64,000 bases of DNA, taken from NCBI GenBank assembly GCA_905178155.1, contig CAJINV010000005.1, positions 8,471,591 to 8,535,590 on the forward strand, written 5' to 3'. The notes beneath the pieces were generated by a model. It made no database searches. It worked only from the letters and a program-made list of their open reading frames with translations, and was not told the origin of the DNA. Both the position numbers and the translations under genes were made by a program. Source of the stretch: Amoebophrya sp. A120 (Eukaryota; Protista; Dinoflagellata). Below, piece after piece: positions 13,618-37,755 of this stretch (position 1 is its first letter; every line of letters begins with the position of its first letter).

Positions 13618-13625
13618 TGCCGCCG

Positions 13626-15349: not shown

Positions 15350-17450
15350 AAAAATTTTCTCCGCGCGCTCCGCGCGCGAGGTTGTTTCTCGGCGCTCCCC
15401 GCACATGGGGCGCGCCCCCACCTCCATCTGTCGCCTGAAAAAAATTCTCCGCGTGTTGTCTGTGCGCTCCCGCCTGGTTGCGTGGCCCCCTCGCCCGAGA
15501 AATTTTTTCCGGGCGGCCCTAGCGCACGCGGTGAGGCTGGTACTCAGCGTTCCCCGCAAATGGGACGCGCCCCGGCCTCCGTCTGTCGCTTGAAAAATTC
15601 TGCCCGCGCGCGCGTTGTTTCTCAGCGTTCGCCACACATCGGGCGCGCCTCCACCTCCGTCTGTCAGTTGATAAATTTCCTCCGCGCGCTGAGCGCGTGG
15701 CTTTGCTGCCTCTGCTTTTTTCTGGTTCGCGAAGTATGTTGCTTCGGTTTTTCTGCACCCAATTCGCGGCCCCGCCTGGTTGTGTGGCCCGCCGGTCGGG
15801 AAAATTTTCTCCGCGCGCTGCGCGCGCGGCGAGATTGCTTCTTAGCGTCGCGCGCGCATTACATGGGGCGCGCACGCACCTCCGTCCGCCTCTTGAAAAA
15901 TTTTCATTCTCCGCGCGTTGCGCGCGCGGCAAAGTTGCTTCGCAGCGATGCCCGTACATAGGGCGCGCCCCCACATCCGTCCGCTGCTTGAGAAATTTTC
16001 CCCGCGCGCTGCGCGCGCGGCGCGGTTGCTTCTCAGCGTCCCCCCCACATGGGGCGCGCACCCAGCTCCGCCCGCCGCTTCAGTTCTCCGCGCGCCGCCC
16101 GCGCTTCTCAGCGCCCCCCGCTCATAGGGCGCGCACCCACCTCCGTCTGCCGCTTGAAAAATTTTCTCCGCGCGCTGCGCGCGCGGCGAGGTTGGTTCTC
16201 AGCGTTCCCCGCATATGGCGCGCGCACGCAGCTCCGTCTGCCGCTTGAGAGATTTTTTTTCTCCGCGTGTTGCGCGCGCGGCAAGGTTGCTTCTCAGCGT
16301 TGCCCACATATGGGGCGCGCACCCACCTCCGTCGGCCGCTTGAAAAATTTTCTCCGCGCGCTGCGCGCGCGGCAAGTTTCATCTAGAGCGCGCACCCACC
16401 TCCGTTCGCCTGTTGAAAAATTTTCTCCGCGCGCTGCGCGCGCGGCGAGTTTTCTTCTCGGCGTTCCCCGCACATGGGACGCGCACCCACCTCCGTTCGC
16501 CGCTTGATTTGAAAAATTTTCTCCGCGCGCTGCGCGCGCGGCGCGTTTTCCTCTCAGCGTTTTCCGCCCCTGGGGCGCGCACCCACCTACGTCCGCCGCT
16601 TGAGAAATTTCCTCCGCGCGCGCTGCGCGCGCGGCGCGGTTGCTTCTCAGCGTTCCCCACACCTGGGGCGCGCACCCACCTCCGTCTGCCGCATGAGAAA
16701 TTTTCTCCGCGCGCCGCCCGCGCGCGCGCCGCGGTTGCTTCTCAGCGTTCCCCGCACATGGGGCGCGCACCCAGCTCCGTCTGCCGCTTGGTTGAGAATT
16801 TTTCTCCGCGGCGCGCGCTGCGCGCGCGGAGAGCTTGCTTCTCAGCGCCCCCCGCATATGGGGTGCGCACCCAACCCCGTCCGCCGCGTGAAAAATCTTC
16901 TCCGCGCGCGGCGAGGTTGCTTCTCAACGTCCCCCACACATGGGGCGCGTGCCCATCTACGCCCGTCGCTTGGAAAATTTTTTCCGCGCGCGCAAAGTTG
17001 TTTCTCGGCGTTCTCCCCACATGGGGCGCGCACGGCCCCCCTCCGTCTGCCGCTTGAAAATTTTTCTCCGCGCGCGCGCGCGGCGAAAATGCTTCTCAGC
17101 GTTCCCCACACATGGGGCGCGCACGGCCCCCCTCCGTCTGCCGCTTGAAAAATTTTCTCCGCGCGCTGCGCGCGCGGCGAGTTTGTTTCGCAGCGTTCCC
17201 CACACATGGGGCGCGCACGGCCCGCCTCCGTCTGCTGCTTGGAAATTAATTTTTTCTGCTCCCCCCGCATATCGGGCGCGCCCCCACCTCCGTCCGCCGC
17301 TTGAAAAATTCCCCCCGCGCGCTGCGCGCGCGGCGCGGTTGCTTCTCAGCCGTCCCCGCACATGGGGCGCGCACCAACTTCGTTCGCCGCTTGGGGAATT
17401 TTCTTCGCGCGCTACGCGCGCGGCGAGGTGGCTCCTCAGCGTTCCGGGTG
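15350..17450. repeat. GC/CpG-rich satellite, ~90-bp unit, ~22 copies
   Basis: Unit ~GAAAAATTTTCTCCGCGCGCTGCGCGCGCGGCGAGGTTGCTTCTCAGCGTTCCCCGCACATGGGGCGCGCACCCACCTCCGTCTGCCGCTT. Confidence 0.95.
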
Positions 17451-17945: not shown

Positions 17946-18502
17946 ATGCCCAATTCCCCCTGCAAGGCCGAGAACTTCTCCCTCGGCATCGAAGTGCCGA
18001 AGTTGAAGAAGCCGAGTAAGGAACCGTTGGTGCCCACCGAGAAGGTCGCGGGGTTCTTCCTGCAATTCAAGGAGTCCCTGCCGAAAAAGCTCGAGATTCC
18101 GGAGGAGAAAGACCTCCAGAAGGGACTGCAGAGCGGTAGAATGGTTTTTGTTATACAACTTTGAGTATGAAAAAAAAAGATAATGTAGTTTGACGACTTC
18201 ATGCTTGTCATGATGAAAATAATGTTGAGTAGGAAGGAGAAAGCAAAACTGCATCCTCTCTTACAGTGCCGGTCCCGAACTTTACGAAGTTTAATGTGGA
18301 AGCGCACAAGAAGATGGTCGAAAAACAGGAAGAGGAACGCGCGCAGCACAACAAGAAGTTCGTCGAGGCGCAGCGCGCGGCGGCGTTGAAGCCGGTGCAG
18401 CAACCGGTGTGCGCGTCCGCGCGCACCCCCTGGACACCCCGAGTACCAGCCGGTTTACGCATAGGAACAACGAAAAGGCGATCGAGGACCAAGAAGCGCT
18501 AG
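17946..18502 (+). pseudogene. Chimeric or truncated paralog of the 19898 gene, fused out of frame to a copy of the 3' end of gene 1498
   Basis: GT-AG intron 18136-18266 at the same position as in 19898; homology to 19898 stops at ...KPVQQPV (~18409), then the sequence switches to a copy of 4038 onward. Confidence 0.65.
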
Positions 18503-19535
18503 ACGCGGCGCTGCCCGCGCCGGACCGCAGTACGAGATCAATCGGCGGGAACGCCGCGAGGGTGGGGTCGGTCACGGTGACGGGATCAACATCTTCTGCA
18601 AATGAACAGGATAATGCAAATGAGCAAAGCAGGAATGCTAGCGGTACGAGTCGGGCAAGTCGTAGAAGTTCCAAAAGCAAGAGGAATTTTGCTGAACTAA
18701 ATCTAGAAGAAACAGCGGCGCTGTTAGGCGAGGACGACACCAGCAGCCCAGAAAGAAATTCAGTGTCGAGAAAGGGAAAGGGGAAGGGCAAGAAAGGAAC
18801 GTGAACGAAAAGACAATAAACTTGAAAACTTCTTTCGCGTGCCTGTATGATGAAACAAGATTAACTGTTGTGTTTCGAATGCTTGCAGGATGTGCCGCCA
18901 CAAAAAACCGTGTGGTCAGTAAAGTTTCCAAGAAGAAGAATTATTTTAGTACTTTTTTAGTACAACAGCTCCTGCAAAAGTTTGCCTGAAGCTCTATCAC
19001 GAACTACACTCATCTGTCTTGTTCCAGAACGGAAGGCAGCGATCTTCTTCCTCTTCTGGGGTTTTAGATATAATTACAATCGTGGTACGACGTATGCACC
19101 GTAGAAACCGTATTAGCCCGTTCATACTCATAACTCGTAAATTTCGATGAGTCGCATGATTTGTCGTTGAGAGATAGGGCTGCATGCTCAGTCCCTTAGT
19201 CTCTCGGGTGTGCTGTCGAAAATCGTATCAGCATGACTCTCGTACGAATAGAGACGGGATCGAATGAATAAAATCGTGTTTCGTGTCTTATTTCAATTTG
19301 TCGCTGAGAGAGGGTCGTGCTCGTGGTCGCAACGTCGATGAGCCATCGTGTTTTGCCTCTTCGAGCTTTATTTTCGCTTCGTGTTCGTATCTCGGAAATC
19401 GAAATCGTCAGATGTGAATCTTCCGAATACACAAAGACTGTTGCAACGTGTCTCAGAAAGAAATACCGATTTCTCCGTAGGCGTTCTAGTTGTGCCAGTA
19501 AATAAGAAGTTTCGCGTAGGCGTTCTAGTTGTGTA
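18413..19535 (+). repeat. Diverged duplicate of ~4038-5095 (last exon and downstream region of gene 1498)
   Basis: Near-identical translation RAHPLDTPSTSRF...KGKGKKGT* and colinear 3' flank with indels. Confidence 0.9.
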
Positions 19536-19897: not shown

Positions 19898-20712
19898 ATG
19901 CCGAATACCCCGTCCAAAACGGAGATGCCGTCGCTGGGCCTCACCATGCCGCAATTTCGGGTCCCGTCGAAGGAGTTTCTCGTGCCGGATGAGAAGGTGG
20001 AACTGCTGACGAAAAAAGGCCTAAACGCCTTCAAACAGTCCTTGCCGAAGGGCATCGAAATTCCGGACGAAGAAAATCCGCACAAGGGTGTGTCCAGCGG
20101 TAGGAATTATATTATCTGATGTGTAAATTATTTATTTATATCAAATGTTTGTTGAGAATCTTCTCGATCTCGACCTCCTACCTTGATTTTGCTTTTTTCA
20201 CGTGAGGAGATACACGTAAGGAGAAAGCAAAACTGCATCTTCTATTACAGTGCCGTTTCCCAAATTCACGGAGTTCGACATCGAGGCGCACAAGAAGATG
20301 GTCGAAAAACAGGAAGAGGAACGCGCGCAGCACAACAAGAAGTTCGTCGAGGCGCAGCGCGCGGCGGCGTTGAAGCCGGTGCAGCAACCGGTGCAGCCGG
20401 AGGGCTCGGTGTACACCGGTCCGTCGGCGTTTTTCCCGTGCAATCCGAAGCTCGGTCTGGCCCAGTACATCGTGAAAACCGAATTGCAGAAACTGGTGGA
20501 CTATCCCTTGCAAAAGTATCGTCCTAGTAGAAATCCAAATCGCGTTGAAAATTCGGTCAGCATATATGGAATTTGTGATGCTGATTTCACTTCACAACTA
20601 GATTTGTACATACGAGTGCGATCCTTTTGCAATGCATATCGATGGTTCCGACGCGTCCTCGGACGTGAAACTGCAATTGCAGGAGATCATGGAGAAGGTC
20701 GCGAAAATCTGA
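19898..20712 (+). CDS. Hypothetical protein, MP(Q/N)(S/T)P family, 3 exons
   Basis: GT-AG intron 20100-20250; introner 20502-20638 (KLVD|GSDASSDVKLQLQEIMEKVAKI*). Confidence 0.8.
20502..20638. mobile_element. Introner family B
   Basis: DR tggac/tcgat. Confidence 0.88.
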
Positions 20713-21832
20713 TGAGGTTCTTGGTTTCAGGAATGAGTAGAACGAAGCTTCGGCTTCGTTTTATGGGAACTAGGGCTTTATTCACACCTTCGACATCCAC
20801 GAACAGCATGAGTTTCAGTGCGCATCAAATGATAGATTTTATTACTAGCAACCAGGAATGTTTGAGCGAGTTATGAGCAGATTGTGACAGTGAATTGACC
20901 TGTACGCTCTTGTTCTTTCTAGTGCGTTTAGAATGTGAATCTTCGTTTTTTGTAAACAATGAATTCAAAATCAAAAATATGGGAAAACTCTTCTAGATCT
21001 ACGTACCTAGCCGCACGTATTCAGCAGTTGGGTTTCCGATTGAAATCTGTACAGAAGCAAAAAAATCAAGGCACTACAATCAAAATTAATTTCAGTATTC
21101 TCCTTCAGACATTTTATTAGAGCCAGCTATGTATCGCTACGAAAAGGAAAAGAATAAAGAAAAACAATACAAAAATTGGACGCTCACTGTACATCTAAGA
21201 ACGTTGATGGATAAAGTCCCGCGCTTTCAGCATCGCCGCCGCTTTTTCAACGTGGAGCGTAATCGTTAGATTCTTGAAAGACAAACGGATAGGAAAAAAC
21301 TTTATCTCAATGATGTTGCTGGGCATGATGCGCACAGCATAGCACGCCCTACAACTTGTGAAGATGAAGGGTGTTTTAGTGTGCCGACCGTGTTTGTTTT
21401 TCCATGGTACCAGGAAGGCGAAGGTCGGTCATGGGTTTCTGTCTCCTGGGTAGCTACAAGTCGTGTTTTTTTCTTTTCGTCATTGGGGGAACTGAAATTG
21501 CAGAGCAAATGGGCGGTCCATGAGGATTTCAAAATCGTGTATGTGCTTTCGAAAACTACAGGCAAGGTAGCAAATACATTCGTCGTTTTACTCGTTCTTG
21601 ACGACGAAACAAAAGCAGGCACCCCTCATCTTTTCGCGACCCCCACCAAACACGCCTCTTAAACCCCCATAAAACTCCCTTTGTTTCTTTTCGCTTGACC
21701 TCGAAATGTAAGTGAGCAGGAGCCTCCTGTGAAGCTGAAACAAAATTCCGAATCAAGTCGCGTAACGTAAAAAGCTGTACGTCTTGTTGCATAAACCGTT
21801 GCTTTTTCAAGACAGAAAAGCCAAAGTCAACA

Positions 21833-22462
21833 ATGCTCCGTGACAAGTACCCCGCCCCCCGACGCGGCGCCCGGCCGCAAACTGGCACTTGTTTGCCCCA
21901 CTGCCAAATGACGGAAGAATCCTCCGAGGCGATATTCAAGGAATTCGTGGAAAGAGCGACAGAGATGCTGCAGGGAAACGACAAGGACGCGCTCGACTAC
22001 TGTGTCGAAGTGGGCCCAACGGGGATCAGCGTCCCGTCTACTTTCCCGGCGTTTCACTGGAATTCACGGACGATGAGGCCAGCAGGTAAAGACGGTGGCA
22101 TGAACACGATGAACACCAGGAATTGTTTTATGGTCGGTACCGAGTTCGCGCACATCCACGCGAAGTACTTTGAAAAAGATCCATTAAGAAGCGCAAAACA
22201 AGACACCCGAGAGCGAGACCGCCCCTGGCAGGTGTGGCAAGGCGGGGGGTTAGGATCAATGCATTTGACGCTGGATCTCCAAGACGCGGAGGAGCTGAAC
22301 CGCCTTGGGTGGACTGAATTCCATCTGCTAGCCGCGCAGAAGCACCCGGGAGTGCCGGCGGGGTTGGTGCTGGTTTACGCACCAAGGAATGAGGAGGAGA
22401 TTGAGGTTTGTTTGAAGATTTTACAAGCAAGTTTGGATTTCGTGGTAGCGCATTTTAGATAA
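21833..22462 (+). CDS. DUF5519 / fungal-luciferase-like family protein, intronless, copy 1
   Basis: Family motifs PxRxGxRP, PHxQ, EFAHIH, GSMHLxL, GWxExHxLA and VYAPRNEEEIEV..KILQAS. Confidence 0.85.
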   Translation: MLRDKYPAPRRGARPQTGTCLPHCQMTEESSEAIFKEFVERATEMLQGNDKDALDYCVEVGPTGISVPSTFPAFHWNSRTMRPAGKDGGMNTMNTRNCFMVGTEFAHIHAKYFEKDPLRSAKQDTRERDRPWQVWQGGGLGSMHLTLDLQDAEELNRLGWTEFHLLAAQKHPGVPAGLVLVYAPRNEEEIEVCLKILQASLDFVVAHFR

Positions 22463-22994
22463 AGATTTTAGGATCGAGTTTATTGAGGCTAAAAACGGTG
22501 GAAAAGAAAGGAACCAGCTGAACTCAACTTGTCTTCACCGCCTTTAGCTGCTGCTGCTGTAGTGCGCAGGTCTGTACGGTTCGGCTATGACTTGTGCACG
22601 AGTAGTGCAAGAACCCGTGTTCATCTTTTGTGGTGTGGCCACGTGGCCAGGTCGTCTCGTTTCGATGCGTTTCGTCTACAGGACAGGAAAGACTTCTGAA
22701 TCTGAGTTCAACAATGTTGATTCAGACGAGCGGAGAGGCAGGATAAAATGTTGAGTCAATCGAGCGAAAAACAGTTCTGTCGTATTCGTCGTGATAATAT
22801 GGAGGTTTGCACAGCTAGCGTCTCGTCGTTCGAGCGAAAGCTGAAGTTCCTCCACTATGATCGTAGGAACTTCTTCTACGCGTATATGAATGAAATTGAA
22901 AAGTAACTACTAGTAGTACTAGTACACACGACACCATCCAGCATACTACTGTGAAGAGCAACAGCACATCAAAAGAACACATCCCGAAAACAAA

Positions 22995-23585
22995 ATGGCG
23001 CCGAAAAAGAAGAGAGACAAGAATGGCGCCGAGGAAAAAGTAAAGCCGTCCTTCACCACCTTCGTTCGGCTACACGGGACTCTCGACGGTGATTCTGAAA
23101 ACTTGTCAATCAAAGAATCACGGGAAGAGTCTCTTGATGGAGGACGAAGCACGAGTAAATCCAGGTCAAAATCTCCGTCGCCGAAAAAGCACACGAAAAA
23201 GGCGAATTCGGTATCCACTGCATGAAGGCGCAGCGCGCGGCGCGCGGCGGCGTTGAAGCCGGTGCAGCAACCGGTGCAGCCGGAGGGCTCGGTCTACCCC
23301 GGTCCGTCGGCGTTTTTCCTGTGCAATCCGAAGCTCGGTCTGGCCCAGTACATCGTGAAAACCGAATTGCAGAAACTGGTGGACTATCCCTTGCAAAAGT
23401 ATCGTCCTAGTAGAAATCCAAATCGCGTTGAAAATTCGGTCAGCATATATGGAATTTGTGATGCTGATTTCACTTCACATACATACGAGTGCGATCCTTT
23501 TGCAATGCATATCGATGGTTCCGACGCATCCTCGGAGATGAAAGTGAAGCTCTTGGAGATTATGGAGAAGGTCGCGAAAATCTGA
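22995..23585 (+). pseudogene. Chimeric junction: 5' 72 codons of the 25842 gene, an introner stub, then the 3' part of the 19898 gene
   Basis: MAPKKKRDKNG...KANS, then TATCCACTGCATG (23212-23224), then a copy of 20350 onward. Confidence 0.7.
23385..23511. mobile_element. Introner family B (duplicate of 20502)
   Basis: DR tggac/tcgat; 10-bp internal deletion. Confidence 0.88.
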
Positions 23586-24698
23586 TGAGGCTGGTTTCAG
23601 GAGTGAGTAGAACGAAGCTTCGGCTTCGTTTTATGGGAACTAGGGCTTTCTTCACACCTTCGACATCCAAGAACAGCAAGAGTTTCAGCAAGTATTAAAT
23701 GGGAGACTTTATTACTAGCAACCAGGAATGTTTGAGCGAGTTATGAGCAGACTGTAACAGTGAATTGACCTGTACGCTCTTGTTCTTTCTAGTGCGTTTA
23801 GAATGTGAATCTTCGTTTTTTGTAAACAATCAATTCAAAATCAGAGATATAGCAAAACTTGTTCTAGATTTACATCCACCTAGCCTCGCGTATTCAGCAG
23901 TTGAGTTTTCTATTCGAAACTGTACAGAAGCAAAAAAATCAAGGCACTACAATCAAAATTAATTTCAGTATTCTTCTTCAGACAGTTTGTTATCTTATGG
24001 CCAGCTATGTATCGCTACGAAAAGAATAGAGAAAAACAATACAAAAATTGGACGCTCACTGTACATCTAAGAACGTTGATGGATATAGTCCCGCGCTTTC
24101 AGCATCACCGCCGCTTTTTCAACGCCGAGCGTATACTTAGATTCTTGAATGACAAACGGATAGGAAAAAACTTTATCTCAACGATGTTGCTGGGCATCAA
24201 GTGCGCGCAGCACAGCACCAACTACTTGTGAAGTTGAAGAGTGTTGTAGCGAGCCGACCGTGGTTGTTTGTGTGTATCAGGAAGAGAAGGTCGGCCATGT
24301 GTTTCTGTCTCGCGGGCACCACACCTACAAGTCGTGTTTTTTTCTTTTTGTCATCGGGGAAACTGAAATTCTCGGGAGCAAATGGGCGGTCAACGAGGAT
24401 TTCAAAGTCGTGCACAAGCACGTCGTGTTTTCGAAAACTACAGGCAAAGTACAAATCGCATTCGTATTCGTTCTTGAGGAAAAGCAGGCACCCCTCACCT
24501 TTTCGCGTCCCCCACCAAACACGCCTCTCAAACCACCATAAAACTCCTTTTGTTTCTTTTCGCCTGACCTCGAATTGGATAGTGAGGATGAGCTTATGTT
24601 GAGATTAAAAATTGTTCCGAAACAATTGCAACGCAAAAAGCTGTACGTCTTGTTGCGTCAACCCGTTTTTTTTCAAGACAGAAAAGGCCAAGTCAACA

Positions 24699-25319
24699 AT
24701 GCTCCGCGACAACTACCCCGCCCCGCGACCCGGCGCCCGGCCGCAAACCGGCACGTGCTTGCCCCACTGCCAGATGACCGAGGAATCCTCCGAGGTGATA
24801 TTCAAACAGTTTGTGGAAAAAGCGACAGAGATGCTGCAGGGAAAGAACGACAAGGAAACGCTTGATTACTGTGTCGAAGTGGGCCCAACGGGGATCAGCG
24901 TTCCTTCGACCTACCCTGCTTTTCACTGGAATCCGAAGACAATGAAACCAGCTAAAACCGGTGGCATGATGATGAGCACCAGAGATTGCTTCATGGTCGG
25001 TACCGAGTTCGCGCACATCCACGCCAAGTACTTTGAAAAAGATCCATTAAATGCAAAACAAAGGGGCCCAGTAGACCGCCCCTGGCAGGTGTGGCAAGGC
25101 GGGGGGTTAGGCTCGATGCACTTGACGCTGGATCTCCAAGATGCGGAGGAGCTGAACCGCCTCGGGTGGACAGAATTCCATCTTTTATCCGCGCAGAAGC
25201 ACCCGGGAGTGCCGCCGGGGTTGGTGCTGGTTTACGCACCAAGGAATGAGGAAGAGATTGAGGTCTGTCTGAAAATCTTAAAAGCGAGTTTGGATTTTGT
25301 GGTAGCGCATTTTCGATGA
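24699..25319 (+). CDS. DUF5519 / fungal-luciferase-like family protein, intronless, copy 2
   Basis: Same motifs as copy 1; intact frame with in-frame indels. Confidence 0.85.
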   Translation: MLRDNYPAPRPGARPQTGTCLPHCQMTEESSEVIFKQFVEKATEMLQGKNDKETLDYCVEVGPTGISVPSTYPAFHWNPKTMKPAKTGGMMMSTRDCFMVGTEFAHIHAKYFEKDPLNAKQRGPVDRPWQVWQGGGLGSMHLTLDLQDAEELNRLGWTEFHLLSAQKHPGVPPGLVLVYAPRNEEEIEVCLKILKASLDFVVAHFR

Positions 25320-25841
25320 GATTTTAGGATCGAGTTTGAGGCTAAGAACGGTGGAAAAGAAAGGAACCAGGTGAACTCAACTTGGTTTCACCCTTTAGCT
25401 GCTGCTGCTGTAGTTCGCAGGTCTGTCCGGTGCAGCTACGACTTGTGCACGAATAGTGCAAGAACCCGTGTTCAACATCTTCCGTGGTGTGGTCACGTGG
25501 CCATGTCGTCTCGTTTCGATGCATTTTGTCTAGAGGACAGGATAGACTTCTGAATCTGAGTTCAACGATGTTGATTTAGACGAGCGGAGAGAAAGGAAAA
25601 GACTTTGAGTCAATCGAGCGAAGAATAGAACAGTTGTCGTATTCGTCGTGATATAGAGGTTTGCATATCTAGTGTCTCGTCGTTCGAGCGAAAGCTGAAG
25701 TTCGTCTCCTATGATCGTAGAAACTTCTACGCGTATATGAATGAAAAGTAACTACTAGTAGTACTAGTACATCACACGACACCAGCATACTACTGTGAAG
25801 AGCAACAGGACATCAAAAGAACAAATCTCGAAAAAAACAAA

Positions 25842-28800
25842 ATGGCGCCGAAAAAGAAGAAAGACAAGAATGGCGCCGAGGAAAAAGTGAAGCCGTCCTT
25901 CACTACCTTCGTTCGCCTGCACGGGACCCTTGATGGCGATTCTGAAAATTTGTCGATCAAAGAATCACGCGAAGAGTCTCTTGATGGAGGACGAAGCACG
26001 AGTAAATCCAGGTCAAAATCTCCGTCGCCAAAGAAGCACACCAGCAAGGCTAATTCAGACGGGACGTACGATGTTGACCCCGAAGATGGTCGTAGGAGAA
26101 GCAGGAGCCGGAGCCGCTCCAACTCTCCGTCCAAATCCCCCAAACCACCACCCCCGAGAGGTCGGAAGCGAAGAAAATCCTCCATCGACAAACGAGAAGA
26201 CAGCATCATGCTGTTTCAGCACAAGATGCAAGATGACTACGTCAAAGCACTTCGGAGGGTATGAACTGCAAAAGTATCGTACTCGTAGTATCGCAATACA
26301 AATTTAGCTCAGCATGAGAAATGGAATTTCTCATGCTGATTTAGCTTGAAAAAAAAATTTGTCTTGCATGATTGCAATCACTACGAGTGCGATCATACTT
26401 TTGCACAGGATAGAGGGAAAACCTTTCCTACGTCGCCCAAGCGATATCGCCGATCCGGATTGCGAAGGAGGTGGCGAGCGGTGTGGCGAAGCGGATCAGT
26501 CCGGCGAAGAAACCGGCGTTTTTGGTGTCGAAGGAACAAGAGACGGAATCGAGTCAAAAACAGCGAGCGTTTGAAACGCTGGAACAATCAGCTGATAAAA
26601 AGAATAAAATCATCCCGCTCAGTAATTGGGCACCGGGGTCGACTAACAGTAGTTGGACCAGTGGCGCGTCGTATTCCACGACACAATCTGACGGGAACTA
26701 CACGGGAACAGGTGCAGGAGCCACTTCTAGTAGTAAACCAAAAAATAAACAGCAACCTTTTCTCTTCGCGCCAGAAGACGGAGACTACGGTCCGGACGAC
26801 CCAGTGAAGCAATCGACGCGGGAGAGCTTTTACCAACGCAGTCAAATGAGCAATGATCACGTCGTCAACATCCCGCCGCCGACGGAGGACGATAAGATTC
26901 TCTACCCGAATGAGACGGTGCAACAAAGGTACAGACGGCTGCAGAAGCAGGAATTGGATGAGATGTACATGAGCAGGAACGAGTACGACAGTTCACAACT
27001 CCCCCTCCTCCTCATTTGTTTTGCATGGACAGCAATACAAACACCCGCACCTATGAAGCCTGTGCATGACAAGTTCACACTCGTATTGTAGTTACTGTTT
27101 GGGCTTGCGGACGAATCTGTCATGCGAACAGTACCACAGTGCAGCGCTTGGACTTGGTATTTATGCATGACAAACGAGGGGGAGGGGGAGTTGTACGCTC
27201 TCATAACGAGAAGAAGATCCGGGAACTGGAGAAGCACGAGATAGCGACGAAGATCAAGTGGAACAAACAGAAAATAGAGGAAGATTCCAAGGAAGTCGAA
27301 GAGGACGAGAACCGGAGAGAACGAAGACGGATGAGGCTCGTGGCAAAATCCTCCGTCCCGGTAGCGAACTTGCCGCGGGAGCTGTCCGAGCTAGTGCAGG
27401 TTCGGGAACGGAACAATCCAAAAAACGGGGACGAGACGCTGATTAAAACACTGAAGAAATTCGGGATCAAAGATGCGAGATTAAAGTTGTCGCAATACAA
27501 GACGGCGTTATTGAGGTACTGATGATGTAGTTTTTTGACTTTGGTATAGTTTGTCGTGCACAATTTGCATCATCGGCTGTGTGTGTCATGCTCATCTGTA
27601 CATCACGCAGCAAACACTTTCATAGGTACACGCAATGGAAATCCCCCGTCTGCCCTCCCGACCCGATTTACAAAGCTAATGCAACCGAACGGCAAAACCT
27701 GGCTGGGGAAGTGCACGGCTCCGGATTAGTAACGATCAATAAGGACTTCGACGACGCCTTGGAGCACAAGCGACAGATGTACGTGAAAGATAAATTAGAA
27801 GCGAACTCCCCACTAGACAACCTCTCCACGCTATCGTAAGAAAAAACTGTTTCACTGTAAGGATTTTGCAAGTTTTGCATTACAAGTTCGCTACACATTA
27901 CAAAGAAAACTTGCCATGCAAGGATCCTAACGGAAAACACCACTAAAAATCATTTGTCTTGCATGTGTAGCAAGACAAACACTTCAGTGAGATGCATTTT
28001 CTGCGTCACAAGTTCACAGCGAAGCAGTTTTTTCTTGCGATACACGCCGGGAGACCATCATTCTGACACGGTGTCCGTGATCAGTTCCAAAGCGATGTTG
28101 GACCAAGTAGCAGCGGAGAACGAAACGCTGAATCCTTTGACAAGGGTGAAACACCCGGAGGAGGAGAAAAGACTAGCAAGGGAGCGGGAGAGGCTGAAAA
28201 AAGAAAAGCAAAGAGATCAGCAGTACTTGGAAGCTTATCGGGAGGAGAAGCGGATGCAGGGAGAATCGTCGACCGAAAATCCTTATGCATTGCAAAAGTG
28301 TGAACGTTTCTTGCAGCACTTTGCATGACAGGTCTGTTCTTTTTACGTGAATCCGCATCACAGATCTCATTTTTCATTTTGGAAAGATTTGTCATGCAAT
28401 CTACACTACTGGTACAACTGCGATACGCATACCGATACTTTTGCAATGCATACTCCCAATCTGGGTATCTTCACCAAGGAGGAACCAAAAGTCCGCTTTG
28501 CCGATGGAGTCAACCCCGGGGAAGATGAGAATTTTGATCTAAAATTCACGGGAAATAAGAGATCCGTGCGGGGGAAGGTGTTTGCCAAAGCGGTTGACAA
28601 AAAAGCAGAGTACCCCGCGCAGTTTTCACCGCAGAAAGGAGGGACCAAGCCGAGCGGGGCTTTGCGGAGTCAGAAAAGTTTGGACAACAGTGACTTAGAT
28701 GAGGAGGAACTTCCGGAAGAGGAGAATGATCCCCACTACGACCCGTGTTTGTCTCCAACGCAGAAACTAGACGTGGATAAACTGTACTATGCCGTTCTCA

Positions 28801-31800
28801 GACGTTACATTCTCAACAGTAATGCATGAATCTGTGATGCAAAGTAACCATAATCCACCACAAAATCAAGCTACCTCGCATGACAAGTTACCGAAGGGCC
28901 ACACAGCATCTGAATCTGCGTCATCAAGTTTGTGATGCGAGAGCTGCAAGCTTGCCCCTTTCACTGCCGCTGGTCTTGCATTACAAATTCATGCAACAGC
29001 AGCTGCTGGGAGTGTAACGTTTGGGAATCCCATATGTACCGGATGGACTCGATGGAACAACTACAGCAGCAGATCGGGTTGCAAATGAACCAGAGAAACA
29101 AAGGACCGAAGTTCTCGTTATTCAACGCGAGCTTCAAGTTCAAGGAGTTCCTAGCGCCCGTGGAAGATAACGGCCTGGACCCGAGAGTGACACGGAAAAA
29201 ACCACTCCCGCTCTATCCTGTGCAAAAGTATCGTACTCGTAGTAATTTCAATCATGCATTACAAATCTTTTCCTCAAGGTGAATCTGCATTACAAATTCA
29301 ATTTCTCATGCTGAAAAAATTTGTATTGCAATACTACGAGTACGATACTTTTGCAGAGCATACGCTCTTGATTCGGCCGCTCTTCGTGGGGATCTATGCC
29401 ATGATCGCCGGCATCTACTTCTGCACGGTGCCGCTGCGATATGAAAGTGCACAATTCCCCCTCCCCCTCGTTTGTCATGCAAGATCTCAAATCCAGCTGC
29501 TGCCCTGTAGCACTGTTTGCATCACAAATTCTGCAAGTCCAAACAGTACCACACGAGGCGCATGAATTTGTCATGCATAGGCTCCATGTGTGCTGATGTC
29601 TGTATTGCTGCTTATGCCATACAAATGAGGGGGAGGGGGGGTTGTGCACTGTCATATGCGAGAGGCCGAACAGGCGGGGAGGCACTTCTGGCAGTGGACC
29701 AACGCAAACTGCTATGCAAGAAAAAAACTGTGTAGGTGTTGTAAGTCTGTCATGCAAAGCATGCAACACAGCTGCGCCTGTCATGCTGGTCAGCCATGAA
29801 GTCCTCTTTTCATATCTGTTTTCATGTGGGAGCTGCGCATGGCAGGCTTTCTCTGTCATGCACAGCAAATTTGTCATGCTCTCACCCCAAGAATAAACCT
29901 AAAGCTAAACCAATACACTTTTTTGTCGGGATAATTGCCGGATCTGGAGGTTTACCGACATATGCTCGGTTTGCGCTTTGAAATCCGACGGGGGCGCGGA
30001 GCGGTGCGGGGTTAGTGACGTCGCGCGGTACAGTAACGGGTGTCAGTTCGACATTCTAATCCGGTATGATAGTGACGGCGGGGAAGAAGACTCGCAGGTG
30101 GCCGAGGGCAATTGGTATCCCGAGTACGAATGGGACGGGAAAGAATACGATTTAGCGCCCAGGGAATACTTCAACCAGTGTCCGGGCGGGAAAGGTATAG
30201 ATTTTTTACGTTTAGTTAATTTCACGTTTTTGAGGATGCATGACAAGCAGGCTGTCTCTTGTACGATTTCGCATGACAAATCCAAATCAAAACAGCCACC
30301 TCCCCCGCCTCTCTCCGCCTTCCCCGCGCGGAGATGGAAAAACTCGAAAACTGCTGCATCTACCACAACCCCACCACCGATCTGTTCTGCGACATGTGGT
30401 CCTACGGGAACACCAAAGGCTCCTGGCCTTGCCGGGTGGCGGAGGGGGACATCTTACCGGCAACCACCACCGAGCGCCCCAGGTTTGCCCAGGTCTGGAT
30501 CTTCGGCCACAACCAGTCCGAGTGGTGGACCTACGCGGGGCTGTGCTTCGCGCTGATGTTGGTCTTGTGGAAATTTTGGCTGTGGCCGCTTTGGATTTAC
30601 CAGCTATGCATTGCAAACGTATCGTACTAGTATAAATCACATGACAAATTTACTCAGCATGAGAAATAAATTTTGTAATGCGGACTGAACTTGAGAAAAA
30701 AACTTGCAATGCAGGAATGCGATTACTACAAGTGCGGTACTTTTACACTGGATACCAGCGGTACGAAGACAAAAGGTTGGAGCAGAGGAGGGAGTTAGAG
30801 GAGATGAAAAGGAGAACGGGGAAAGGGTTCTTTGATAAAGCAACGGGCAAATTCGTCACCTTCGATCCGAACGAGTATTACGAAGAGCAGGAGAATAGCA
30901 GTGGTTACGGCTACGGCGGGTCGTCCCCTGCCCTGTACTACGCGGAACCCCCTTCTGTCTCCGAAGATTTCGATAGTGAAGACATCAAGCCCAGAAGTAA
31001 ACCTTCCAACTACCATATCCACTGCAAGTATGTCTGGGTCTGGACGGTTGCGAGATTTGTCATGCTTGTCTCCCATGACGCTGGGCTTTGTGTTGCGTGG
31101 CTACGAACAGCTCCGCTTGCCTGTTATGCAAAAACGCTGTTTCTCATGCGGAAAAGGCAACACAGAGCGACGGAAAAGCCTGTCATGCTTGGCGGTGCAT
31201 CACAGAGGGCTATACTATTCACTGGCTTACATCAGAACCTTCCAGACCACCCAGACGTATTTGCAATGCATATACCACAATAAAATGCTGAAAGCTTCGA
31301 TGAAGGGCTTGCTGTCACCGAAGAGATATCCTGTGCAAAAGTATCGTACTCGTAGTAATTCTTGCAGTCATGCATTACAAATCTCTTCGTTAGGGTAAAT
31401 CCGCATTACAAATCTAATTTCTCATACTGAGAAAATTTTTGTTGCATTTCTACGAGTACGATACTTTTGCAATTCATAAGAGAAGGCCGAACAAGGATGG
31501 AGAGATAGTGGAAATTAGTCTGGAAAACCAAGTCCCTGCGCGGTCTCTGAACAACCCAGACACCACCTTTGCCTATGACTCCGCACGGAACCCGTTCCGC
31601 GTGGCGTATGCATTGCAAAAGTATCGCACCAGTGGAAATTGCATTACAAATTGGCTCAGCATTACATGATATGCGAAGTTTGTCATGCTGTCTCAGTTTC
31701 GGAGCGAGATTTGTCATGCGCGTCAGCAATTAGTACGAGTACGATACTTTTGCAAGGCATATGGCGCACAATGAGACGATCGGCGGTGTTAACGAGATAA

Positions 31801-34555
31801 TAGATCCACGGTACCCCGAGGGGCAGCGACCCGGGAGCAGAGGGCAGAACCTCGGGAATAAGCCGGTGAGGATGACGCGAGCAGATATATCGAATGCAAA
31901 ATGTTGACATCGTACTCCTCGTAGACTCATCGCAGTACAGCATGACAGATCTAGTTTCTTAGCTAGTTCAGCATTACAAATTCCATTTTTCGTTGTGGAA
32001 AAATTTGTGATGCTATTTCTACGTAGTGCGACCTTTTTGCACTGCATAAGACAGGATGATGGACAAATTCCGCTTGTTGAAGTCCAAAGTTTCCGACCAT
32101 CTCTTCCACCAGCCCGGGAAAATCGCGAACCAGTCACAGCAGGACGTAATAACCGCGCAGGAGAGAAACATTGAAAGAATGCAGTTCGACGGGGACGACT
32201 ATTACTCGCAGACCGCGATAAGACTCGCCGGGGTTCCGCCACCGTTGTACTTGCAGGGGAAATTCATAGAAGACGTCGGAGGAGGACCTGCTGCTTCGAA
32301 AAAAGAGGTGGATAATAGCAACATTCTCATCACAGCAGAAAACAACAACATCGACGCAAAAGGCGGACGGAACCGAAAGACCAGTAAAGACCGCGGCCGA
32401 TCCCAAGAAAACAAAAACCTCTCGCACATGAGGAAAGCGAACAAAAACGAGCATTTGGTGCCACTTATGCATTGCAAAAGCATCGTACTAGTATAAATTG
32501 CATTACAAGTTGACGTAGCATTACAAATTGAATTTGTATTGCGGATTTGCCTGAACAAAAAGATTTGTAATGCATAAACGCAATTAGTACGAGTACGATG
32601 CTTCTGCACAGGATACCGCTACCGGGTGGGTTTCAGGAACAGAGAAGCACAATAATCCGGATATGCTGTGCAAAAGTATCGTACTCGTATAAATGCAGGT
32701 CTTGCATTACAAATTTCTTTGTCAAGGCAAATCAGCATTACAAATTTTCTTTCTCATGCTGAGGAAATTTGTAATGCATTTATACGAGTACGATACTTTT
32801 GCACAGCATACCGGATGCAGGATAGCAAGGACACTATTGGGCGATCAAATGTGTACGATAACGCGCCGGTCGTGGAGACCAGAGGAGATCAAGCGAGGAG
32901 TGCCGAGGAACAGGAAGACTCCTTATGCATTGCAAAAGTATAATGTTCCTCGCGCTAGTAGAAATCGTTTCACCAATTTGATTAGCATGGAAAATGGAAT
33001 TTGTTGTGCGTGTTAGTGTACAAAGGTGATCATCTCTCATGCCTGATTGCCATTAGTACGAGTGCGATACTTTTGCGATCCATACTCCTTCGAATTCTAC
33101 AATGACGTCGATGCGACGTTTCAGCACGTGCGGAAAGGTATCAAATGCAAATAGGTCTGGGTCTGGAAACTTGTGATGCTGGCCGGAAAATCTTGAGGAC
33201 GTCCCAAGTGGTGGCCCTCGCATGACAAGTTTTTGAGCTGCTAGGTGTTGCGTGTTCAGCATGGCAACCTGTGTTTCCGCATGACAGAAAACTGGGACGC
33301 TTGGCTAACGCGCATGACAGACTTGAGAGTCATGCTGGCCGAGCATGACAAAGTCTGCACTCTTCCAGACGCAGAGAGATTTGCAATGCATAAAAGGAAG
33401 CAGCTCCTCTTCTAGCTCCTCGGCACGACACCAAGATACAGTCTCTTACCCCGCCAGCCAGTTTCTTGGACGAAACAAGACGCAGTTCCACCCGGGGCCA
33501 GACGCGCCAGTCTACGACCAGCCCCACATGTTCTCGCAGGACAGCTCGCAAGGCGTGTCGACAAGTACAACCGCTGGTAATCTTCATGCGAGAATCAATC
33601 CCGCGTCCATGCTCGGACCTAACGGCGGTTCCACTTCCACGTCCTCCCGCGCCACAAGGGTCGGGGTCTTTGGCAACCCGGGACCTGGACCCGCGTATTA
33701 CGACGTTGGCGGGGTGAAAGAGGAGGTGATTCTAGGCTCGGAAATGGTGAAGAAGAACTGGACGCATTCGGAACTCCGGGCGAAATCACCCTTGAAAAGG
33801 CGCATCGAGGCGTGCGGAGATAATGTGTTGGGGGAGAACGAATTATATCACAGGAAAAAGTGTTAACGTTAACGGAATTTGTGATGCAACAATGCATCGC
33901 AAAACGTGCCAGAATTTGTCGTGCATAGCATGCGTATTGGACTACATTTGTGATGCATGACTGTAATCTGTGAAAACCGTTAACGTATAACGCTTTTTCT
34001 TGTGATAGATTAAGGAAGATGTTCAAGAAAGCAAAAGCGAAAAACAAGCTGCAAACTGCGGAAGAGAAGTTTTGGCCGAAGCCAGGGGCTACAATACAGA
34101 ACACCAGTGCTAATAATTCTGCGAACCGCAGTCGGGCAAACAGTAAAGACAGTGCGTTTTCATCCTCCGGGAATAGCTCGGATGAAGGAGGGGGTAATGG
34201 TCCCCTGTTTTCCCGAAACAGCTCGAAAGTTTTACCAAGGATCCAGGAGAACGAGGAGTTATTTCCGTATGGAGGAGGAGGCGGGTTCGGTGCTGGTAGC
34301 GTCGAGGAAGAGAATTCGTCCATGGTGTTTCCACCAAATAATAACATCAGCGCACAGCATAACCATAACAATTCAACTTCATCTGTGCTGTCGCAATCCG
34401 AGGAAGATGAACAAACCTGGAACAAATACGTGGAGAACGGACTAGTCGTCGCAAAGGCGAAACCAAAAGCAAAGCAGCGGTACAAAATGCCCGCGGCGGC
34501 TACGAAAATGCAGACGCGGAACGCTGGTGGGGGATTGAATTCAGGGTTTTTGTAA
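25842..34555 (+). CDS. Large hypothetical protein with two TM helices around a Cys-rich loop, 21 exons
   Basis: 18 introners and GT-AG introns 27516-27625 and 30195-30295; all 20 joins stay in frame (e.g. LRR|ENLSY, ANC|RIWRF, EDS|FEFYN, NEL|RKMFK). TM1 PLFVGIYAMIAGIYFCTV, TM2 WWTYAGLCFALMLVLWKFWLW. Confidence 0.85.
26260..26412. mobile_element. Introner family B
   Basis: DR gaggg/gaggg. Confidence 0.95.
26984..27205. mobile_element. Introner family C
   Basis: DR acgag/acgag; left end TAC. Confidence 0.92.
27832..28042. mobile_element. Introner family D (TIR TATCGnAAGAAAAAACTGTTTCACTGT)
   Basis: DR cacgc/cacgc. Confidence 0.95.
28284..28452. mobile_element. Introner family B
   Basis: DR atcct/ctccc. 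Confidence 0.88.
28788..29034. mobile_element. Introner family I
   Basis: DR tgtac/tgtac. Confidence 0.92.
29214..29362. mobile_element. Introner family B
   Basis: DR cgctc/cgctc. Confidence 0.95.
29440..29656. mobile_element. Introner family C
   Basis: DR tgcga/tgcga. Confidence 0.95.
29713..29933. mobile_element. Introner group G (heterogeneous, TATnnnAnGAAAAA ends)
   Basis: DR actgc/attgc. Confidence 0.88.
30605..30754. mobile_element. Introner family B
   Basis: DR ccagc/ccagc. Confidence 0.95.
31016..31272. mobile_element. Introner family A
   Basis: DR tacca/tacca. Confidence 0.95.
31327..31478. mobile_element. Introner family B
   Basis: DR agaga/agaga. Confidence 0.95.
31607..31761. 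mobile_element. Introner family B
   Basis: DR tggcg/tggcg. Confidence 0.95.
31888..32048. mobile_element. Introner family B (degenerate)
   Basis: DR agata/agaca. Confidence 0.9.
32466..32615. mobile_element. Introner family B
   Basis: DR ccact/ccgct. Confidence 0.93.
32662..32810. mobile_element. Introner family B
   Basis: DR ccgga/ccgga. Confidence 0.95.
32924..33084. mobile_element. Introner family B
   Basis: DR ctcct/ctcct; empty site in the paralog at ~36676. Confidence 0.97.
33139..33392. mobile_element. Introner family A
   Basis: DR aaagg/aaagg; empty site in the paralog at ~36725. Confidence 0.97.
33846..34007. mobile_element. Introner group G
   Basis: DR aatta/gatta; TIR TATCACAnGAAAAAGnGTTA. 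Confidence 0.92.
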
Positions 34556-35458
34556 AAAGATATTTCTTTACGTTTACGATCTGTGGAACAGCTGCGAATT
34601 ATGCTGGTTTCAATTTTGACAATAAAGAACTTCTCTTTATTCAGTTTCAACAAATAGTTCACTGCCGTGATTTGACTTCCGTTTCCGTTTCAGAACTTGA
34701 ATCGCTGGATTATCTTGCAGGCACCGGCGGATGCTGGCTCTCTTCTAGCTGCACCGAAGCCGCCCAAGAGCGCTTGCTCGACACTGGTGGTGATTCTGAT
34801 TGTGAGGACCGATCTAAACATCAGTTCTTGAGAGAAGAAGTATTTCAATCAAATTTGAACTACAGGCGTAGAAGGGTAAGTTAGAAGTAGCTTCTTCCAC
34901 AGCAGCATCGTCGTGAAGATGCGTGTGTTCTTCGCGTTCGAACGCCCAACGAAGATTTTGTTGCTCTCTGTGGTGACACTGCCGCTTGTTTGTGCTCTTT
35001 TTTTTGTTCTGGCCCATTGTATCGTGACGGAGATCTTGTTGATCTTCACGGTCGCCCCCCGCAAGGATGATCAGGAGACGGAAACAATGGATCCTCCAAC
35101 CTACTTTCTACTTGTATGTAGAGAATGAAGACGAAAAGCAGGAGCATCTTCCTAGGTAGCTACTTAGTTGCTATCGCAGGTACTACAAACCATGTCCTTT
35201 ATTTGAAAAGGATTGGAATGATTTCATTTATGCATATGCACTAAAAAAGGCGGGTAGTATAGTTGCAAACGTCGATCCGGTTCTTGTTCCCATGTTGCCC
35301 GATCATCTCTTTTCCAACATAAATTTGATTTTCACGAAGAAAATTCTTCCCTTTTTCGAACAAACCACCATGTCTTGGAAGGACGCGTTTGGCCTGGCGC
35401 AGAAAGTGGTTAGTACGAGCCCCGACGTGTGCCAAGTAACGGTGAAAAACGCGACAGA

Positions 35459-35677
35459 TATGAGAGTGTACAACTCCCGCTCCCCCTCATTTGTCATGCA
35501 AAATTCCAAATCCACCCTCAGCCTGTTAGTAGTGTTTGCATGACAGATTCCGGAATCCAAAACAGCACTACAATCCTCTATGAATTTGCCATGCGAATAA
35601 AGCTGCATCTTTGCCAGCGCTTGTGTTGCTGTTCATGCAACACAAATGAGGGGGAGGAGGAGTTGTGCAGTCTCATA
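35459..35677. mobile_element. Introner family C
   Basis: DR acaga/acaga. Confidence 0.95.
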
Positions 35678-35729
35678 ACAGAAGAGTACCGTTTAAAAGT
35701 GAAGTCCTACAATCGGCACGACGCGGTTG

Positions 35730-35991
35730 TATCAATTGCAAATATGTCTGGGTCTGGAAGGCGGCAACTTGTCATGGTAAATCTGAAGCATGCAAAAATC
35801 TGTGTTGCCTGAGTGCCAAAAGCTGTCCACTTTTGACCAAGTTGGAAGGGAGTTTCTCATGCAGGATAGACATGATAGGGATCTCACAGAAACTGTCATG
35901 CTAGGTCCTGCACTCCAGACGACATGGATCATATAAAAATCTGCATGACAAGTTTACAATTTTCCAGACCAAGACATTTTTGCAGTGCATA
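35730..35991. mobile_element. Introner family A
   Basis: DR ggttg/ggttg. Confidence 0.95.
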
Positions 35992-36220
35992 GGTTGGGTT
36001 GTGGCACCACGCGGAGATGCAGTTAAAACCGGGGCAGTCTGACGGAAAAGGCAACACAGAGAGACGGAAAAGCCTGTCATGCTTGGCGGTGCATCACAGA
36101 GTACTATACTATTCACTGACTTGCATCACAACCTTCCAGACCACCCAGACGTATTTGCAATGCATATACCACAAGAAAATGCTGAAAGCGTCGATGAAGG
36201 GCTTGCTGTCACCAGAGAGA

Positions 36221-36375
36221 TATCCTGTGCAAAAGTATCGTACTCGTAGTAATTGTTCTTGCAGTCATGCATTACAAATTTTTTTCTTAATGTAAATCCA
36301 CATGACAAATTTTATTTCTCATGCTGAGGGAATTCGTCATGCATTTATACGAGTGCGATACTTGTGCAATGCATA
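36221..36375. mobile_element. Introner family B (same site as 31327)
   Basis: DR agaga/agaga. Confidence 0.93.
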
Positions 36376-36462
36376 AGAGAAGGCAGAACAAGGATGGAGA
36401 AAATGAGGAAATTAGTCTGGAAAACCAAGTCGCCGCACGGTCTCTGAACAACCCGGACACCA

Positions 36463-36559
36463 TATGCATTGCAAATATGTCCTCTGGGTCTGGAAGGTTG
36501 GAACTTGTAATGCTAGCTTTCCATACCTAGGAAACCTGTATTGCGTAAGCAACAAAAGT
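36463..36559. mobile_element. Truncated family A introner (left part only)
   Basis: Left TIR after cacca; the site is empty at 31561; right part lost at a deletion junction. Confidence 0.8.
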
Positions 36560-36859
36560 CGGATGCAGGATAGCAAGGACACTATTGGGCGGTCGAATGT
36601 GTACGACAACGCACCGGTCATGGACCAAGCCAGAGAAGATGATCGACAAGCGAGGAGTGCCGAGGAACAGGAAGACTCCTTCGAATTCTACAACGACGTG
36701 GATGCCACGTTTCAGCACGTACGCAAAGGGAGCAGCTCCTCTTCTAGCTCCTTCGCACGACAAGATACGGTCTCTTACCCCGCCAGCCAGTTTCTCGGGC
36801 GGAACAAGACGCAGTTTCACCCGGGACCCGACGCCCCGGTGTACGACCAACCCCACATG

Positions 36860-37124
36860 TATCAAATGTAAAAATGTCTGGGTCTGGACGAATGCAACTT
36901 GTCATGATAAATCTGAAGCATGAAAAAATCTGTGTTGCATGATTACCAAAAGTCGTCCAGTTTTGACCAAGTCGGGAGGGATTTTCTCATGCAGGATAGG
37001 CTGGCATGAGAGAGATCGCACAGAATCTGTCATGCTGTGTCCTGCATTCCAGACCTCATGGGTCATGGAAAATCTGCATGACAAGTTTACAATTTTCCAG
37101 ACCAAGACACTTTTGCAGTGCATA
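36860..37124. mobile_element. Chimeric family A introner
   Basis: Flanks acatg and ggttg come from two different genes. Confidence 0.88.
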
Positions 37125-37494
37125 GGTTGGGTTGTGGCACCACGCGGAGATGGAGTTGAAGCCGGGGCAGGAGTCTAGCCAATTCTCATAGGATTGCGCA
37201 TGACAGGTTCCGGAGCATCAAACCCCACTACAATCTGGCGAAATTTGTATTGCAGAAAGTGGAACGCTCTGCGAGTCTGTCATGCTCATCATGCAAGACA
37301 AATCTCAGATTCTATTGTATCGGATGTGATTTCCGCGACCGATGGGTTGTTTATGGCCATGAAGCAGTGTACCTCGATTCAGCTACAGGTTTGCGTGGAC
37401 CGGAATGCATTGTCGTATTATATATGATGACGATGGAACAAGACGAAAGAAGCCGGCTCGTTCCTGCGTCTGGCACAGCAACGCGCGGAACGAC

Positions 37495-37755
37495 TATCAA
37501 ATGGAAAAATGTCTGGGTCTGGAAGAATGCAACCTGTCACGCTAAATCTGAAGCATGCAAAAATCTGTGTTGCATGAGTGCCAAAAGCTGTCCACTTTCG
37601 ACCAAGTTGGGAGGGAGTTTCTCATGCAGGATAGGCATGAGAGAGACCTCACAGACTCTGTCATCCTAGGTCCCGCATTCCAGACCTCAAGGGTCATGGA
37701 AAATCTGCATGACAAGTTTACACTCTTCCAGACCCAGACACTTTTACAATCCATA
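37495..37755. mobile_element. Introner family A
   Basis: DR acgac/acgac. Confidence 0.95.

Follow-up and report, generated by a model that had tools for sequence, protein, structure and literature searches.

A 64,000-nt stretch of the genome of Amoebophrya sp. A120, a marine parasite (contig CAJINV010000005.1, positions 8,471,591 to 8,535,590; hereafter the window), holds two diverged copies of one gene, gene X, which differ in the transposon-like introns that they carry. Copy 1 is intact, while copy 2 lies downstream in pieces and lacks two elements of copy 1, keeping at each place one copy of the 5-bp sequence that flanks the element on both sides in copy 1. We propose, with a probability of about 0.68 for the explanation as a whole, that transposon introns inserted independently into each copy after the split and that copy 2 was broken up later. 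Members of this genus have tens of thousands of non-canonical introns and apparently no U1 small nuclear RNA, and the modes of insertion and splicing are described as open (Farhat 2021, PMC7789003). The two sequenced strains are too far apart for empty sites, which diverged duplicates within one genome do show.

The evidence that carries this explanation comes from two sites in the second piece of copy 2. In copy 1, element 32924-33084 stands between two copies of CTCCT and element 33139-33392 between two copies of AAAGG. At the corresponding positions copy 2 has one CTCCT (36677-36681) and one AAAGG (36725-36729), with no base extra or missing, exactly as an earlier note on this sequence had claimed. 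Each insertion adds exactly the element plus 5 bp. Since the empty sites hold a single 5-mer and the repeat occurs at a length of 5 bp only (see below), the repeat is a target-site duplication, as the same note had read it, and an insertion fixed at element plus 5 bp speaks for a transposase whose cut is staggered by 5 nt. Six synonymous differences between the copies lie in the 49-nt exon that separates the sites, and therefore the exon of copy 2 is not a recent patch of complementary DNA (cDNA) from copy 1. A retrocopy would lack all introns; copy 2 still has the element at 36221-36375, half of 31016 and the ends of elements at 36463 and 36860. Both 31016 and 31327 had been called shared by the copies, which holds for the whole of 31327 but only for the 3′ half of 31016.

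Elements of this kind, 120-360 bp long, starting with TAT, ending with ATA and having inverted ends, crowd the window. We collected 44 pairs of ends with inversion as the sole criterion and excluded a 10-bp satellite at 13.1-14.15 kb; among the pairs are one mispairing, the chimera 36860 discussed below (elements are named by their first position) and two duplicated elements. An exact 5-bp flanking repeat is present in 27 of the 44 pairs and an exact repeat of 4, 6, 7, 8 or 9 bp in none, compared with a mean of 0.12 and a maximum of 2 exact 5-bp repeats in 2000 shuffles of the flanks. TAT followed by seven bases and AAA is found at 36 of the left and 36 of the right ends of the 44 pairs, and at the ends of the four complete elements of the locus except the left end of 31016 (AAG). 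All seven elements that were folded form end-to-end hairpins, with z scores of -2.1 to -7.9 against mononucleotide shuffles. The elements fall into families with related members within the window in both orientations, and their summed DNA depth, which is not a copy number, reaches several thousand times the unique level. TAT ends, direct repeat, hairpin, non-canonical removal and repeated families are thus all present, as in the introners of A120, whose TAT-starting inverted ends, 5-bp direct repeats and hairpins are already published (Farhat 2021, PMC7789003). The two exact genomic empty sites add the target-site duplication of fixed length that defines a miniature inverted-repeat transposable element or other non-autonomous terminal inverted repeat (TIR) transposon. 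Canonical U2 introns and Micromonas-type introners have GT...AG borders, which are not found here when the removed stretch is taken as the element plus 5 nt (the +5 register): it starts with TAT and ends in free 5-mers. The elements are likely non-autonomous DNA-transposon introns of the A120 introner type.

Copy 2 is present in genomic DNA. In DNA run X1, where unique DNA nearby is represented by unspliced contigs at depth 40-45, a 232-nt contig covers 36652-36883 at depth 43 with 0 differences and includes both empty sites, with 25 letters to the left of the first 5-mer. Such a depth excludes a cDNA origin and a half-depth haplotype, which answers the concern, raised in advance, that the second copy might be cDNA or a contaminant. 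A 75-nt DNA contig (36515-36589) crosses the stub junction with 45 and 30 letters on its two sides, and the junctions 36037/36043, 36559/36560 and 36859/37130 are spanned by RNA contigs that show 0 differences. Run X1 is possibly the window's own source sample and so not independent of the assembly. Joints in its contigs stem from repeats and were ignored; one contig that joins copy-1-only sequence to copy-2 alleles was read as a mosaic of contig building and used only as a sign of copy-2 alleles in DNA.

Table 1. Features of the gene X locus and of its upstream fragment (window coordinates)
Feature	Position	Strand	Remarks
11-bp element end	23212..23222		junction of duplication 20352-23209 / 23235-26056; directly after gene X 5′ fragment 22995-23211
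Gene X copy 1, intact, multi-exon	25842..34555	+	about 17 TAT-type elements; GT-AG introns: at least 30195-30295; two other introns with approximate boundaries (near 27516-27625 and 29735-29935)
Element, 257 bp, repeat TACCA	31016..31272		3′ half common to copy 2 (36043-36166)
Element, 152 bp, repeat AGAGA	31327..31478		whole in copy 2 (36221-36375), 13.8% different
Element, 161 bp, repeat CTCCT	32924..33084		absent from copy 2; empty site 36677-36681
Element, 254 bp, repeat AAAGG	33139..33392		absent from copy 2; empty site 36725-36729
Gene Y 5′ part, elements 35459-35677 and 35730-35991 (repeat GGTTG)	35151..36037	+	truncated at 36037, joined to copy 2
Copy 2, first piece	36043..36462	+	equals 31149-31565; 89.8% over 420 bp; begins inside an element
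Left 97 bp of an element of about 255-bp type, after CACCA	36463..36559		right end and 1,246 bp of gene X gone
Copy 2, second piece	36560..36859	+	equals exons of 32812-33530; 86.9% with elements masked; frame open for 100 codons; both empty sites
Likely chimeric element, 265 bp	36860..37124		5′ ~210 bp from family member at ACATG site; 3′ end from counterpart of 35730
Gene Y exon counterpart	37125..37170	+	equals 35992-36037; then repeated element-like fragment at ~37174-37330

Taking each element out together with 5 nt opens a frame of 819 codons in copy 1, from 30295 to the stop at 34555 on the + strand, and the upstream parts open likewise; if retained, 32924 stops the frame of gene X at codon 479 and 33139 at codon 494. 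Removal of the element plus 2 nt also preserves the frame, and the frame test alone cannot separate the two registers. We therefore rely on RNA contigs, assembled from runs X3-X6 of one sample, whose RNA label is guessed and in which the GT-AG intron 30195-30295 is also skipped. The lengths of spliced contigs (966/966 and 711/711 nt) fit +5 and not +2 or +8, the 711-nt contig over 35151-36512 having the length expected with three elements plus 5 nt each removed. Hence the removed stretch is the element plus 5 nt, which frame alone could not fix. Skips of 155, 167, 266 and 270 nt each equal an element plus 5 nt, and one contig spans from upstream of 29936 to beyond 32463. Near 32924 and 33139 the contigs start at 33393 with more letters upstream, which is indirect evidence for the removal of both elements. 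Raw RNA run X9 yielded five matching reads, all partial. The element at 37495-37755, in a stretch without a long clear frame, is skipped in RNA contigs in the same way (266 nt), and the fragment at ~37174-37330 is kept. Three scanned exons of gene X have no match in Pfam; over the six stretches scanned, five gave 0 families and the only match was in a neighbouring gene (PF17648).

The earlier note had described reciprocal differences, with elements at 36463 and 36860 that copy 1 lacks and a further stub at 23212 that is absent at 26058. Of the five differences claimed, two are clean, both in the same direction, and the three reciprocal ones are left halves only, lying at rearrangement junctions; no clean insertion is seen in the direction of copy 2. 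The left ends at 36463 and 36860 do exist, but the former is a stub of 97 bp and the flanks of the latter, ACATG and GGTTG, do not form a repeat. The stub at 36463 is joined to the equivalent of 32812, leaving 1,246 bp of copy 1 without counterpart, and because its right end is missing a second repeat cannot be seen. At 23212 there is indeed an 11-bp element end, whose motif has 39 occurrences in the window, almost all of them at the start of an element; homology with 26058 stops at this junction, however, so that 26058 is not a clean empty site.

The third of these left ends belongs to an element, 36860-37124, that sits at the junction of a 2,199-bp deletion and not in a repeat-flanked insertion. 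Only the last two of the five flanking bases match, short of the 3-5 nt direct repeat of A120-type introners, and the right flank with the next 46 bp is that of element 35730-35991. The first 209 nt contain 31 of the 32 mismatches between 36860 and 35730, and with 37495 and 42384 as references all six alleles private to the pair fall at positions 233-261, within the last 33 nt, whereas in two true control pairs private alleles are spread along the whole length. The longest run identical between the two is 41 bp, at 37069. This pattern of alleles suggests that 36860-37124 is likely a chimera of two recombined elements. As a plain counterpart of 35730 with an adjacent deletion it is disfavoured by the allele positions, a reading that may still hold if its 5′ part was converted.

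In all three RNA-like runs examined, from one sample, a 321-nt contig with 194 + 127 matching letters joins 36857 to 37128. The skip is 270 nt, that is 265 + 5, and the contig keeps the 5-mer upstream of the chimera through at least its third base. At elements with imperfect repeats the upstream copy is kept through position 4 (31888), 3 (32466) and 1 (33846), a register read from piece ends on the assumption that joints are placed leftmost, as seen at the chimera. The chimera and these three elements indicate that a match at repeat positions 1-4 is not required for removal; if the register is uniform, the 5′ cut falls at TAT or one base before it. The direct repeat is thus likely dispensable for removal, and since the +5 register holds at the chimera although its flanks form no repeat, it is likely the distance from the hairpin ends that fixes where the cuts are made. 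The stretch 36850-37135 is predicted to form a strong hairpin (z -6.05, dinucleotide shuffles). A ruler-like removal that reads only the hairpin ends, cutting at TAT or one base before it and 5 (or 4) bases beyond the other end irrespective of the flank, strikes us as having slightly less than an even chance of being right. If it is, two compatible ends joined by recombination would make a working intron at once, and introners would not only disrupt genes but also join the fragments by splicing into new fused transcripts, with the chimera as a natural proof; paralogue pairs across the genome would then yield dated gain rates and the exact cut register. Chimera and imperfect repeats together offer a way to map the splice register and to test the role of the repeat from sequence alone.

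How long the copies have been apart was estimated from codon counts of synonymous (dS) and nonsynonymous (dN) divergence. Compared with copy 1, the first piece of copy 2 gives dS 0.26 and dN 0.064 (45 codons), the second dS 0.49 and dN 0.024 (97 codons) and the third (37125-37170) dS 0.41 (13 codons), or dS 0.41 and dN 0.036 with the three pooled. The 5′ fragment of gene X at 22995-23211 has dS 0.43 and dN 0.018 relative to the intact gene (72 codons); in the upstream duplication dS is 0.47 for a neighbour with a luciferase domain, and a third gene fragment has 0.03 in one half and 0.49 in the other. dN/dS is 0.04-0.25 in five of six exon sets and 0.39 in the sixth, part of which is a nearly identical tract. 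Such low ratios indicate that both copies were under purifying selection for most of their history and that the break-up is recent. Copy 2 is a once-functional, now shredded gene and today likely a transcribed pseudogene. Its fused transcripts lack any long new frame: a stop follows 9 codons past the joint 36857>37128 in the gene X piece and inside the stub 36463-36559 in the gene Y fusion. An enrichment of breakpoints in elements was considered and dropped; at each of the five broken-copy junctions one side touches or lies within an element or element-like fragment, but as elements make up 35% of 25842-36042 this is not significant. The shared elements differ by 5% and 14% and the upstream duplication by 9% overall, and dS in duplicated pairs (0.4-0.5) is 3-4 times the divergence of intergenic DNA and shared elements (0.05-0.15).

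The identity of 87-90% at the DNA level hides a dS of about 0.4. The turnover is fast, but the earlier verdict of very fast relative to divergence has to be scaled to a dS of 0.41-0.49. For two to five events in 1.52 kb of aligned exon it amounts to 3.1 (0.4-11.1) to 7.7 (2.5-17.9) events per kb per unit dS, a rate biased upward since the locus was picked for its differences; it lies above the order of one per kb per dS given for introner gain in core dinoflagellates (Roy et al., bioRxiv 10.1101/2020.10.14.339549). A rough clock, based on how far the 5-bp repeats of 42 elements have decayed (0.095 mismatches per site), places the mean element age at 0.8-1.3 times that of the split, and gain alone then predicts that 37-71% of elements are younger than the split. 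We counted 5 copy-unique slots among 11 element-by-copy slots (45%), leaving out the pair 20502/23385, which lies in a nearly identical tract, and 32662, at a breakpoint; with that pair the count is 5 of 13. The 5 of 11 falls within the prediction, so that gain alone suffices, and of the two options left by the earlier note, fast gain or precise loss, the second is not needed. We hold it quite probable that the elements were gained and not lost. Dating single elements by the decay of inverted repeats or 5-mers was given up, there being too few sites to separate 32924 and 33139 from the shared elements, as was dating these two by their nearest relatives within the window, where the sample was too small.

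Based on these results, we suggest the following course of events. A transposase would make a 5-nt staggered cut and insert an element, and the cell would remove the element with the downstream 5-mer at cut sites that depend on the distance from the hairpin ends, not on the repeat; as this would restore the original coding sequence, insertions in exons would be tolerated. Cut, insertion and removal are the parts that we infer. Both copies would have remained functional up to a dS of about 0.4, each gaining elements: 32924 and 33139 in copy 1, and in copy 2 those with left halves at 36463 and 36860 and probably 23212. Deletions would then have broken up copy 2, whose own element after ACATG likely recombined with the counterpart of 35730, in the same direction, within the 41-bp identical stretch, losing its right half and its repeat and producing the chimera and the 2,199-bp deletion.

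Several points weigh against this course of events. The introns behind the two clean differences are neighbours, and one and the same copy lacks both, as a single conversion by a reverse transcript would give, and 33139 has few close relatives (summed DNA depth 1,391 in bin 33212-33512 compared with 371,534 for 36824-37124), which fits an older element or a small family. A protein search for an outgroup with exon 30295-30603 gave 0 hits among 37 candidates of 182-2000 amino acids, which is weak evidence; one with the neighbouring gene 21833-22459 gave 24 hits, of which the two best are the window's own copies and the next is 50% identical. No outgroup was found in this way, and gain is argued from parsimony and the rough age model. 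No transposase was found either, though no search was aimed at one. All the RNA evidence consists of contigs assembled from one sample whose RNA label is guessed. For the chimera, Fisher's test of the allele split gives 2e-5 with a split point chosen after the alignment had been seen. Reverse transcriptase can skip hairpins at short repeats, and the joint across the chimera is possibly such a skip of a strong hairpin at the 2-base overlap, carried into assembled contigs of one sample.

Among the alternatives, the one that survives best is itself compatible with gain: the copies could be alleles of two diverged lineages joined in one chromosome by recombination, and the differences between sites polymorphisms between these lineages. 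It is supported by the similar dS (0.41-0.49) that five of the seven exon stretches show across three neighbouring genes and gene Y, by purifying selection everywhere, broken fragments included, by the higher-identity tract with which both duplicates begin, and by the position of 22995-23211 and 36043-37170 as collinear pieces of one copy flanking an intact block of 12.8 kb (23226-36037). However, the same picture results if an old local duplication or triplication was followed by recent deletions and gene conversion, and two other duplicates (4038-5099 / 18413-19502 and 50558-50877 / 58410-58759) do not fit one simple insertion; both copies are at full depth in one DNA run, and so are not two half-depth alleles of a mixed culture. 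We rate this alternative as possible, though hardly the likeliest course.

Somewhat less credible, and in our view unlikely, is that 32924 and 33139 predate the split and that copy 2 lost both at once by recombining with a reverse transcript of its own spliced messenger RNA. Their closeness, separated only by the 49-nt exon, their exact absence with one 5-mer left as in the messenger RNA, the retention of more 5′ elements and the few relatives of 33139 would all follow, and retroelements are reported from these genomes (Farhat 2021, PMC7789003). But gain plus loss is then needed where gain alone suffices, copy 2 had an element of its own only ~130 nt downstream of the second empty site, the element ages already predict about half of the sites to be copy-specific, and the element ends found only in copy 2 stay unexplained. 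Excision by a transposase, or break repair through the 5-bp repeat, would also restore an empty site exactly, and inverted ends with a 5-bp repeat fit cut-and-paste elements, and several copy 2 breakpoints lie in or at elements; two independent footprint-free excisions would be required, and the visible breaks here left stubs and deletions and not clean sites, which makes this improbable. An assembly artefact, cDNA contamination or an uncollapsed haplotype is very improbable: copy 2 junctions do lie in high-copy repeats, no listed DNA contig spans all of copy 2 and two junctions are crossed by only 30 and 24 letters on the short side, but copy 2 has elements and stubs, a dS of 0.4 from copy 1 and a DNA contig at depth 43 with 0 differences, and RNA contigs run unchanged across three of its junctions.

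Introner elements of Micromonas were reportedly treated by Huff et al. in 2016. Close relatives among these algae are described as differing in the presence or absence of elements, and remnants as well as nested or merged elements are on record (Verhelst et al. 2013, PMC3879977), much as here; their splice sites are canonical, one of them coming from a 3-nt repeat, and the elements lie in sense orientation (PMC3879977; PMC11282704), whereas family members in the window occur in both orientations, have borders other than GT-AG and leave the sequence of the repeat free. The introner-like elements of Polarella and Symbiodinium are likewise described as transposon-made, with a fixed repeat length per class, 5 nt in one class, and with rates scaled to dS, but recruit GT/GC/GA and AG splice sites from the repeat or element end (bioRxiv 10.1101/2020.10.14.339549), while no such border dinucleotides are needed here. 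Inverted ends, target repeats and hairpin-guided non-canonical removal are shared by introns of Fritillaria and euglenids, with other end motifs and borders (AG-AC/AG-AT; pyrimidine|purine) (PMC11282704). Closest are the introners of A120 itself, reported as ~150-320 nt long, with non-canonical borders, direct repeats of 3-5 nt (5 bp in the legend of Fig. S19) and many families per gene, and with the same TAT+7+AAA ends and hairpin as the elements of the window (Farhat 2021, PMC7789003). The consulted text and supplement legends of that paper contain no filled/empty pair within a strain and no test of whether splicing needs the repeat; gain and loss are called indistinguishable there and a general mobilisation by transposase is doubted. 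A review (PMC11282704) already calls the repeats of these elements target-site duplications, and several transposon classes have been recognised among A120 introners, including TIR elements with an integrase-like frame (Gozashti et al. 2025, PMC12130899). A literature search that covered few subscription journals found no paper on empty sites or repeat-independent splicing in Amoebophrya in the material it reached. The elements, their 5-bp repeats and introner presence/absence in other algae are thus already known, and the gain described here is evidence and not a new system; likely new is the removal of a chimeric element at element plus 5 nt without a matching repeat.

Further duplications surround the locus. 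The pieces 22995-23211 and 36043-37170 around the intact block could be a captured segment of a diverged lineage or an old duplication. Tracts of high identity (0-5% divergence, compared with 10-15% elsewhere) at 20352-20640 / 23235-23513, 31149-31390 / 36043-36280 and 18300-18409 / 20284-20393 suggest that the copies later underwent gene conversion or crossover with each other. The gene at 19900 has a third fragment, at 18234-18409. The genes at 21833-22462 and 24699-25319 form an intact, intron-free pair with a luciferase domain (PF17648) and proteins 85% identical, whose relatives come mostly from environmental data, with weak ones in bacteria. Local duplicates at 4038-5099 / 18413-19502 and 50558-50877 / 58410-58759 share 82-85% identity without element differences, and 58410-58759 is preceded by an element-like fragment at ~58373-58404.

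Across the window the 9-mer GCAT(G/T)ACAA or its reverse complement occurs 97 times, 81 of them inside listed elements, which cover 21% of the sequence. It is carried by 50 of 63 elements of different families and found also in introns at 29871, 30238 and 30271, and is possibly a site for a transposase or a splicing factor. Tandem arrays at 13188-14065 and 15350-17445 are built of a 10-bp unit (~42 copies), a 24-bp unit (~17 copies) and a GC-rich unit of ~91-95 bp.

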